In this document: in pieces, positions 17,012-17,504 of the stretch
Position numbering within the stretch: position 1 is the stretch's first letter
Layout: each line of letters begins with the position of its first letter
Made by a program: the position numbers and the translations under genes
The notes under the pieces: model-generated
What the model was told of the DNA's origin: nothing
Seen by the model: the letters and a program-made list of their open reading frames with translations, nothing else
Database searches by the model: none
DNA from: Escherichia coli
GTDB taxonomy: Bacteria > Pseudomonadota > Gammaproteobacteria > Enterobacterales > Enterobacteriaceae
Length of the DNA: 64,000 bases
Strand: one strand, 5' to 3'
NCBI RefSeq assembly: GCF_045037415.1
Contig: NZ_CP173438.1

Positions 17012-17347
17012 ATGTCACAGACCCCATCCGATACTTTTAAATTGTCTTATCCCTTCACCACTGCTGCAGGCACCAGAATTGAGCTGGTTGAACTGAAACG
17101 CCTGACGGTAAAAGACCTGAAGCAGGTGCGCAAAATCAGCAAAAACCCGGCAGACTGGGACGAACCGCTGATTGCCCGCAGTACTGGTCTTCTCCCGGAG
17201 GATCTCGACAATATGGATCTGGCTGATTACCTGCAGTTACAGAAACGATTTCAGCTCATCACGGGGATGGGTGAGAGCAACCAGGGCGCTGACGCAGGCG
17301 CAGGGGCTGCTGGCGAGATGGTTCCGGTTTCAGCCGGGGGAGATTGA
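17012..17347 (+). CDS. tail assembly chaperone
   Basis: 111-aa ORF immediately upstream of tape measure; overlapping out-of-frame ORF 17172..17429 gives a possible frameshift extension. Confidence 0.6.
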   Translation: MSQTPSDTFKLSYPFTTAAGTRIELVELKRLTVKDLKQVRKISKNPADWDEPLIARSTGLLPEDLDNMDLADYLQLQKRFQLITGMGESNQGADAGAGAAGEMVPVSAGGD

Positions 17348-17504
17348 TGCCCTCGATACTGACGATCTGGAGATGTGGCTGGAGCAGGCTGAAGAGCAAA
17401 TCAAAAGCGAGTACGGCGACAAATCATAGTACAGACAGCCGCCAGTAGCGGCTGTTCTGCGTTATCCCCTCACGTCTTTTCACCTTCCCCGGAGGTTAAC
17501 CACT

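Follow-up and report, generated by a model that had tools for sequence, protein, structure and literature searches.

A probable +1 frameshift at UUU_C in the gene for the tail assembly chaperone from a BcepMu-like Escherichia coli prophage

Known recoding systems and the gene E locus

Frameshifting in tail assembly chaperone genes is among the most conserved recoding events in phages, and well-supported Gram-negative +1 cases are few. In phage P2, the gpE+E' protein arises through a −1 frameshift at TTTTTTG (T_TTT_TTG), and its E' part is the region described by PF06528 (GenBank; PMC3091744). Phage lambda makes gpGT alongside gpG through a −1 shift at G_GGA_AAG. The efficiency of shifting is about 1:30 in lambda, and 2-3 times higher in P2-like phages (PMC5009743). 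Phage Mu has a verified −2 site, CGG_GGG_CGA, which is a G-run near the 0-frame stop. Shifts of +1 are also on record for the same chaperone pair. There are 350 'forward' (+1) tail-chaperone annotations in SEA-PHAGES actinobacteriophages (PMC10885494), and the archaeal virus HSTV-2 has a +1 tail-chaperone shift (PMC5009743). These examples differ from the locus described here in chaperone family and host, and their sites are mostly annotation-based. The sequence UUU_Ynn is especially +1-prone in bacteria, the YopN-TyeA site appears to be UUU_Y, and the influenza A PA-X cassette is UCC_UUU_CGU (PMC5009743).

Here, we analyse a tail gene locus within a stretch of 64,000 nucleotides of E. coli DNA (the window), in which the locus belongs to a BcepMu-like prophage. 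Positions 16600-17600 are 100% identical to Escherichia phage PhiKM, a member of the genus Bcepmuvirus and an isolated phage from uropathogenic (urinary-tract) E. coli. The segment 16900-17600 is widespread, being found in 640 of 5,426 complete E. coli genomes (~12%), with an identity of at least 99% in 583.

Gene E (17012-17347, + strand), present as noted earlier, encodes 111 amino acids under standard 0-frame decoding. Its product matches PF10109 (Phage_TAC_7) over residues 8-81 with 74.8 bits, above the curated cut-off of 25 (E = 5.5e-21), and also matches phrog_166 (tail protein; E = 2.8e-32). Pfam gives PF10109 the title 'Phage tail assembly chaperone proteins, E, or 41 or 14'. Residues 8-81 make up the conserved PF10109 domain; behind it, residues 82-111 form a tail under little constraint, overlapping the extension in the second frame, which we call E'. 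Upstream of the gene is the tail tube gene, with one small ORF in between, and downstream is the tape-measure gene. Judged by its profile match and position, gene E is a tail assembly chaperone gene of the P2 gpE / Mu gp41 family. A sequence search for relatives in the PDB found none.

The genes around gene E are, by homology, a P2-type contractile-tail module. Upstream are a sheath gene (14682-16109), a tail tube gene of the P2 FII type (16109-16630, +; PF04985, E = 2.9e-53) and the small ORF, whose function is unassigned (16633-16914). Downstream are a tape-measure gene (17505-20456, +), which encodes 983 amino acids and is identified by PF10145 and the PhiKM annotation, and, 3' of it, a gpU homologue (20456-21340). 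The tape-measure protein is the presumed client of the chaperone. By analogy with lambda, the tail tube protein would be the presumed partner of the E' domain.

The +1 reading frame and the position of the frame switch

A second ORF overlaps gene E in the +1 frame relative to it. It is open from a TGA at 17169-17171 (+), the 5' limit for any shift in the window, to a TAG at 17427-17429, and its first start-like codon is the TTG at 17172. The frame ends 82 nt (~27 codons) past the gene E stop, and only 75 nt lie between its stop and the start of the tape-measure gene. The original prediction had described a 111-aa ORF overlapped by a second frame reaching 27 codons past its stop, an arrangement that our recomputed coordinates reproduce. 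It read the two frames as a chaperone and its frameshift extension upstream of a tape-measure gene, and both PF10109 membership and gene order agree. It also placed the extension in the +1 (equivalently −2) frame and not in the −1 frame. We recover the same frame in about 130 distinct relatives, and the second-frame conservation on which the prediction depended is borne out, as across these ~130 loci the frame stays open and its peptide is conserved.

The length of the frame says little by itself. By our own arithmetic, the chance of a random 85-codon open frame is ~0.02, (61/64)^85, which is only mildly unlikely. ORF length is thus weak evidence, and we took comparative conservation as decisive instead. 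Relatives were drawn from GenBank phages and two IMG/VR scans, and the E'-like peptide in each was located with an HMM made from E' peptides. Set one (IMG/VR and GenBank) holds 64 distinct sequences, in which E' lies in the +1 frame, and set two holds 74, of which nearly all have it in that frame. E' lies in the −1 frame in only four set-two loci (L154-L156 and L160), as well as in the P2 and Pasteurella phage references that were added. The +1-type clade covers phages and prophages of Escherichia, Klebsiella, Salmonella, Ralstonia and Pseudomonas, together with Burkholderia phage BcepMu. Note that many of the enteric sequences are close kin and are not independent of one another.

We find that E' belongs to a recognizable protein family. 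Its translation matches phrog_8286 (E = 2.7e-34), a functionally unassigned family built from stand-alone calls of E'-type small ORFs. The match to Pfam PF06528 (Phage_P2_GpE) is weak, at 14.6-18.4 bits against a gathering score of 23 (E = 0.0015-0.023). This partial match spans profile positions 4-36 of 37 and residues 100-132 of the predicted fusion, and we regard membership of E' in PF06528, though sub-threshold, as probable from its position. A motif F-x-[WF]-x-P-x-E...W, common to E' and P2, is visible in the alignment. A scan of E' against NCBIfam profiles returned no match. Among relatives, the +1-frame residues LLARWFRFQP are kept through changes that are synonymous in the +1 frame only (Arg CGG / AGA / CGC, Leu CTG / CTA). 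A conserved overlapping second frame therefore runs beyond the chaperone stop and is kept as coding in relatives. On this comparative evidence, the +1 frame is a genuine coding sequence.

Variability among the relatives changes its reading frame within gene E. Across the 64 sequences of the entropy analysis, the most variable columns between 17039 and 17248 are those of 0-frame position 3. Between 17255 and 17426 they are those that are position 1 in the 0 frame and position 3 in the +1 frame. The frame switch thus falls at 17249-17255, and it is seen again in two independent subclades, GTG_TTT_CGG and GAG_CGA_TTT_CAR. Against this, in the enteric clade the first 45 nt past the site show no more than a weak frame preference (1.10 / 0.91 / 0.88). 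Per-column entropy is zero at 17249-17252, the four nucleotides TTT_C.

In all +1-type relatives whose alignment was usable, we find the aligned phenylalanine, Phe80, encoded by TTT and followed by C. This invariance rests on two alignments, in which the site was found by protein motif (set one) or by MAFFT column (set two); L168, an outlier that is misaligned, and L158, a locus that is truncated, are the only exceptions. Conservation of the residue may have protein reasons; our argument rests on the codon. Third-position entropy is 0.91 at F15, the other strongly conserved Phe of E, versus 0.00 at Phe80. Loci carrying TTT_C span a GC content of 0.51-0.73, and TTT is a minority Phe codon (3-38%) in the neighbouring long ORFs of GC-rich loci. 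The flanking codons vary, with TTA, CTG, TTG or CTA for a Leu, CAG, CAA, CGG, CGC, CGT or CTG in the A site, and 11 different forms of the E-site codon among relatives. There are 17 different 9-mers around the site, including CGA_TTT_CAG, GTG_TTT_CGG and TCC_TTT_CGC, a tally that chose TTTC by construction and is thus no independent proof of invariance.

Stop codons bracket the same site from both sides. Upstream of TTT, the +1 frame is open for 26 codons in the window, but for 3 codons in 18 relatives. Downstream, the 0-frame stop is found 5 to 40 codons past TTT among relatives, and in many of them the 0 frame closes within 5-11 codons. Both limits occur together in the sequences behind L143 and L141, where the overlap shrinks to ~14 codons and TTT_C is the sole re-pairing element within it. 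The overlap thus contains a conserved slippery sequence between its stop codons. Because TTT_C is invariant, stops bracket it, and third-position variability switches frame there, we place the proposed +1 shift cassette at CGA_UUU_CAG (17246-17254, +), with CGA in the E site, UUU in the P site and CAG as the 0-frame A-site codon. These comparisons make UUU_C at 17249-17252 the probable shift site.

Little around the four nucleotides is held constant. The CGA E-site codon occurs in 62 of the 64 sequences of set one and in 75 of 130 overall, and elsewhere GTG, TCC, TGG or GCC takes its place. We dropped CGA as an essential E-site codon, as it is replaced outside the enteric clade; it would be a modulator at most, and that it tunes shift efficiency is speculation on our part. 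The 0-frame A-site codon of the window, CAG, is not rare. We looked for a Shine-Dalgarno-like stimulator just upstream, in CAGAAACGA, where none is visible. An RNA fold of the window alone has z = −2.2, and its hairpin is not conserved. Seven diverse enteric sequences, searched for conserved RNA structure, gave a consensus of −7.5 kcal/mol, in which the covariation term is +0.43; this fold is weak and without covariation. We rejected a stimulatory RNA structure on the grounds of this weak consensus fold and of a hairpin that is not kept in relatives.

Other readings of the overlap

The original prediction pointed to a run of G residues in the overlap, near the end of gene E. The run, CCGGGGGAG, is indeed there (17334-17342, +), and its five G at 17336-17340 are in the 0 frame in the window. 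A slip at this position would add an extension of only ~28 aa. It could proceed by a −2 slip of tRNA-Gly from GGA (17339-17341) to GGG (17337-17339) or by a +1 slip from GGG (17336) to GGG (17337), and would predict the junction ...VSAGG(G)EIDALDTDDLEMWLEQAEEQIK (also given as ...SAGG(G)EIDAL). The in-frame run looks like the −2 site of Mu, CGGGGGCGA, which has been verified by experiment, and its position near the 0-frame stop is the usual layout. However, the run is missing in Salmonella, Ralstonia and Pseudomonas relatives, where it is replaced by CCCAGTGAA, CCGAGTGAG and CCGAGTGAA, which read Pro-Ser-Glu in the +1 frame (e.g. CCG AGT GAG). KP12-like relatives share 82-85% identity with the window, and a GTT TAG closes their 0 frame before the run is reached; in one E. 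coli lineage (L028) the 0 frame stops at codon 91. Both the +1-frame selection and the conserved LLARWFRFQP lie upstream of the run, which is ~90 bases downstream of the UUU_C site, and a fusion made at the run would miss one third of the PF06528-like domain. Sequence comparison therefore leaves CCGGGGGAG best explained as the Pro-Gly-Glu codons (CCG GGG GAG) of E' and not as a slip site.

The comparison with Mu that came with the original prediction holds for the relative frame of the extension. The resemblance of the run to the Mu site is misleading, as no conserved 0-frame G-run is found at the frame switch; close relatives do not have the run in the 0 frame, and it lies downstream of the switch. 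The predicted extension of 27 codons has to be revised as well. Because the frame switch at 17249-17255 is upstream of the run, and +1-frame constraint runs from TTT_C, the functional extension would be ~58 codons. Slippage at the G-run is largely refuted by these comparative data, and we regard it as very unlikely. Two further GGGG runs, at 17263-17266 and 17303-17306, occur both in the window and in KP12 but are absent from Salmonella and Pseudomonas relatives. They also lie downstream of the 0-frame stops of L082 and L085, which occur 8 codons past Phe80, and were dropped.

The sole serious rival to a frameshift at UUU_C is independent initiation, in which E' would be a separate ~52-aa protein made from its own +1-frame start, e.g. 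GTG 17271, and acting in trans. This reading is implicit in PGAP and PHROG annotation. In one RefSeq genome, PGAP gives 17271-17429 an entry of its own, 'GpE family phage tail protein' (the ORF is unannotated in the others examined), phrog_8286 consists of such stand-alone calls, and BcepMu gp42 is annotated as a gene of its own. A G-rich stretch upstream of GTG 17271 is also flagged by a crude Shine-Dalgarno pattern. However, no independent translation start is conserved for the extension: any one start-codon position is common to at most 29 of 130 sequences, and several relatives are without ATG, GTG or TTG in the whole stretch from the upstream +1 stop to the conserved motif. Constraint on the +1 frame sets in right at TTT_C, upstream of the starts given in annotation, and the invariance of TTT_C would lack an explanation if E' were initiated separately. 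In addition, P2 produces its homologous E' solely as part of a fusion (GenBank annotation; PMC3091744). Taken with these points, a separate E' protein seems unlikely.

Two other explanations would do away with ribosomal shifting altogether. The overlap could be functionless, with the +1 ORF either a chance open frame or the decaying remnant of a defective prophage. Long alternative open frames are common in GC-rich sequence, and most genomes carry no PGAP annotation for this ORF. Nevertheless, conservation of the E' peptide through synonymous changes extends to phages of Burkholderia, Pseudomonas and Ralstonia, E' matches PF06528 (weakly) and phrog_8286, and the same module occurs in the isolated phages PhiKM and BcepMu. 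The comparative data refute a chance frame or remnant, to which we give practically no credence. Alternatively, the +1 frame might be reached through transcriptional slippage, or a sequence error or variant might hide a single ORF. In-frame fusions of 138 aa do exist in databases. We set these 'Rosetta-stone' fusions aside as uninformative, because their junction pattern is that of indel errors or mutants. The junctions fall at differing homopolymers (the G5 run, including G5-to-G4, GGG and AAAA), mostly in single contigs, and the location of the G-run is a hotspot for indels, from which spurious fused ORFs arise. The presence of copies at least 99% identical to the window in those 583 E. coli genomes also argues against an error, and TTT is too short for RNA-polymerase slippage, which counts against a transcriptional route. 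There is only a very slight chance that the frame is reached without ribosomal slippage.

Proposed decoding and its relation to known sites

We infer that an E+E' fusion is very probably made through a shift into the +1 frame, and that gene E is likely to be decoded in two ways, by standard 0-frame translation to gpE and by a minority +1 shift at UUU. Most ribosomes would keep to the 0 frame, giving the 111-aa chaperone. A minority would slip by +1 with tRNA-Phe in the P site on UUU (17249-17251). The anticodon of tRNA-Phe is GAA, and re-pairing with the overlapping UUC (17250-17252) would replace a G.U wobble with a G-C pair. After the slip, ribosomes would read AGC UCA UCA CGG... from 17253 to the TAG at 17427-17429, through the E' extension (17253-17429, +; 58 codons, SSSRGW...LLARWFRFQPGEIDALDTDDLEMWLEQAEEQIKSEYGDKS). 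Re-pairing at −2 from UUU would land on GAU, which is impossible, so the shift would be +1, unlike that of Mu.

The predicted gpE+E' would have 80 + 58 = 138 aa (~15 kDa), with residues 1-80 carrying the PF10109 domain and a 58-aa E' domain behind them. Its predicted junction is ...LQKRF/SSSRGW..., giving the junction peptide FSSSR, and the E' frame is predicted to yield the tryptic peptides ALTQAQGLLAR and FQPGEIDALDTDDLEMWLEQAEEQIK. If the products act like lambda gpG/gpGT and P2 gpE/gpE+E', the N-terminal domain common to both would coat the tape-measure protein, and tail-tube subunits would be recruited by the less abundant E' domain. The same analogy suggests that shift frequency would set the ratio of gpE to gpE+E' for tail assembly.

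Several features of the locus are those of P2. Matches to the same two Pfam families follow in the same order, PF10109 then PF06528 (the latter sub-threshold here), and gene order is likewise shared (sheath FI, tube FII, E, tape measure T, U, X, D). The predicted fusion is of similar size (138 aa here versus 142 aa in P2), and the proposed shift falls at the C-terminal end of the PF10109 domain, ~3 alignment columns from the P2 site. However, the shift would be +1 here and is −1 in P2, and it would involve a single-tRNA slip at UUU_C in place of a tandem slip on a U-rich heptamer; no X_XXY_YYZ heptamer is found at or near 17249. The 0 frame continues 31 codons past the site here versus 7 in P2, and E' identity is low (30% over 27 residues). 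Exact homology with the P2 shift codon was rejected, as the MAFFT alignment brings the two sites together only approximately. Because of this, and because the G_GGA_AAG of the −1-type relatives is further downstream, we claim no shared ancestral slip codon. This lambda heptamer is carried by L154, L156 and Pasteurella phage AFS-2018a.

Mu gp41 / Mu_56 has its extension in the same relative frame (+1 = −2), and gp41 touches PF10109 weakly (24.7 bits versus the 25-bit cut-off). Both are transposable myoviruses with the chaperone gene upstream of the tape-measure gene. Mu differs in its G-run site, as the G-run here is not conserved and UUU_C cannot re-pair at −2. Similarity searches between the Mu extension and E' found none. 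Lambda gpG / gpGT has the same functional logic and genomic position (PMC5009743), but belongs to another protein family and differs in direction and motif. The wider family thus contains at least four recoding types: the proposed +1 at UUU_C (the present clade), −1 at T_TTT_TTG (P2), −1 at G_GGA_AAG and −2 at a G-run (Mu). Shift direction can therefore change inside one protein family.

The E/E' pair is in our reading a variant of the well-known tail-chaperone recoding (lambda G/GT, P2 E/E+E', Mu −2) that is unannotated or mis-annotated in databases. The fusion CDS is not annotated in the PhiKM, KP12 or PGAP records. The BcepMu GenBank record treats its +1 ORF, gp42, as the lambda-G analogue and gp43 as the slippage product of gp42. 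With only 75 nt between the E' stop and the tape-measure start in the window, this scheme cannot be general, and BcepMu gp41/gp42/gp43 should be re-read. A joined CDS for the 138-aa gpE+E' would take the place of a 'hypothetical' or 'GpE family' small ORF. In our literature search we found no account of a +1 UUU_C shift in the BcepMu-type clade, for which an earlier mention is possible in subscription papers, and no mass spectrometry, reporter or ribosome-profiling evidence for this phage or its relatives. The general picture of tail assembly is unchanged.

Sites of +1 shifting are hard to recognise, and the comparative data here narrow one to four nucleotides. We lean towards a broader reading, in which the whole BcepMu-like clade (phages and prophages of Escherichia, Salmonella, Klebsiella, Pseudomonas, Burkholderia and Ralstonia) would use a minimal, stimulator-free +1 cassette, N_UUU_C, as a natural, so far overlooked bacterial counterpart of the PA-X site, and the family would have swapped among four recoding solutions. 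If so, the gpE family would be a natural test bed for the determinants of frameshift direction and efficiency, and the BcepMu gp42/gp43 annotation, along with hundreds of PGAP and PHROG entries, would be wrong. The locus would also supply a compact natural UUU_C cassette for mechanistic study of bacterial +1 slippage.

The proposed slip resembles those of the E. coli argI error site, Yersinia YopN-TyeA and influenza PA-X, which share UUU_C/U and re-pairing of P-site tRNA-Phe at +1. The genes are unrelated, and the next codon in the window is CAG and not a rare Arg codon. Among the relatives, 29 read UUU_CGG, a dicodon that was reportedly tested by Schwartz and Curran in 1997 and is said to be highly shift-prone. 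The TCC_TTT_CGC of BcepMu is nearly the same cassette as the UCC_UUU_CGU of PA-X.

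Putative frameshift motifs within the chaperone family

Three -1-type relatives, the loci L154 and L156 and the Pasteurella phage AFS-2018a (L010), belong to the same chaperone family as gene E of the window. Each carries the slippery heptamer G_GGA_AAG, of the type found in lambda, immediately before the 0-frame stop. The presence of such members in one family with the window's gene indicates, from sequence comparison, that the direction of the shift and its motif have changed repeatedly within this family.

In BcepMu (AY539836, 2603-3364), gp41 is the gpE homologue and contains TCC_TTT_CGC, and gp42 is the +1-frame E' ORF. 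The record, probably in error, labels gp42 as the analogue of lambda G and takes gp43 to be the slippage product of gp42; gp43 has no Pfam match and no counterpart in the window.

Truncated and apparently fused chaperone products

An E. coli prophage variant found on two IMG/VR contigs (L028) has a CAG to TAG change at chaperone codon 91, equivalent to 17282-17284 of the window. The 0-frame product is thereby cut to 90 aa, while the +1 frame stays intact. This truncation is consistent with the 0-frame tail of the chaperone being dispensable.

Public protein sets also contain 138-aa chaperone-extension proteins that read as 'in-frame' fusions (P0001 to P0011), with their junctions at homopolymers. 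In P0003 to P0005, on up to 12 contigs, the junction is a contraction of the five-G run at 17336-17340 to four; in P0001 it lies at a GGG near 17285. These fusions are probably either indel errors or natural indel variants, and they would yield no more than a truncated fusion.

Features flanking the chaperone gene

The tube gene and the chaperone gene are separated by a 93-aa ORF (16633-16914), which matches phrog_1239, a family of unknown function (E = 4.7e-48), and more weakly DUF7739, under the cut-off. The ORF is found in the phage PhiKM and the related phage KP12; the Salmonella relative L007 is without it, and its tube gene ends ~50 nt upstream of E. Between the small ORF and the chaperone gene there is a GC-rich, terminator-like hairpin (AGGGGC-TCCG-GCCCCT, 16921-16936) followed by TCTTCTTAAT. 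This hairpin is located within a region expected to form a single late operon. A perfect 7-bp hairpin (CAGCCGC-cagta-GCGGCTG, 17434-17452), read from the window sequence and given no score in the terminator scan, stands immediately 3' of the stop codon of E'; the tape-measure gene starts 53 nt downstream of it.

The tape-measure gene contains a 261-bp tandem duplication (19321-19855; 2.0 copies, 93% identical), through which ~87 aa of the protein are repeated. In the PhiKM record this gene is interrupted by a sequencing gap, and in RefSeq E. coli genomes PGAP flags it as an incomplete pseudogene. Copy number of the repeat, and hence tail length, may vary; alternatively, the repeat may be a source of broken assemblies.
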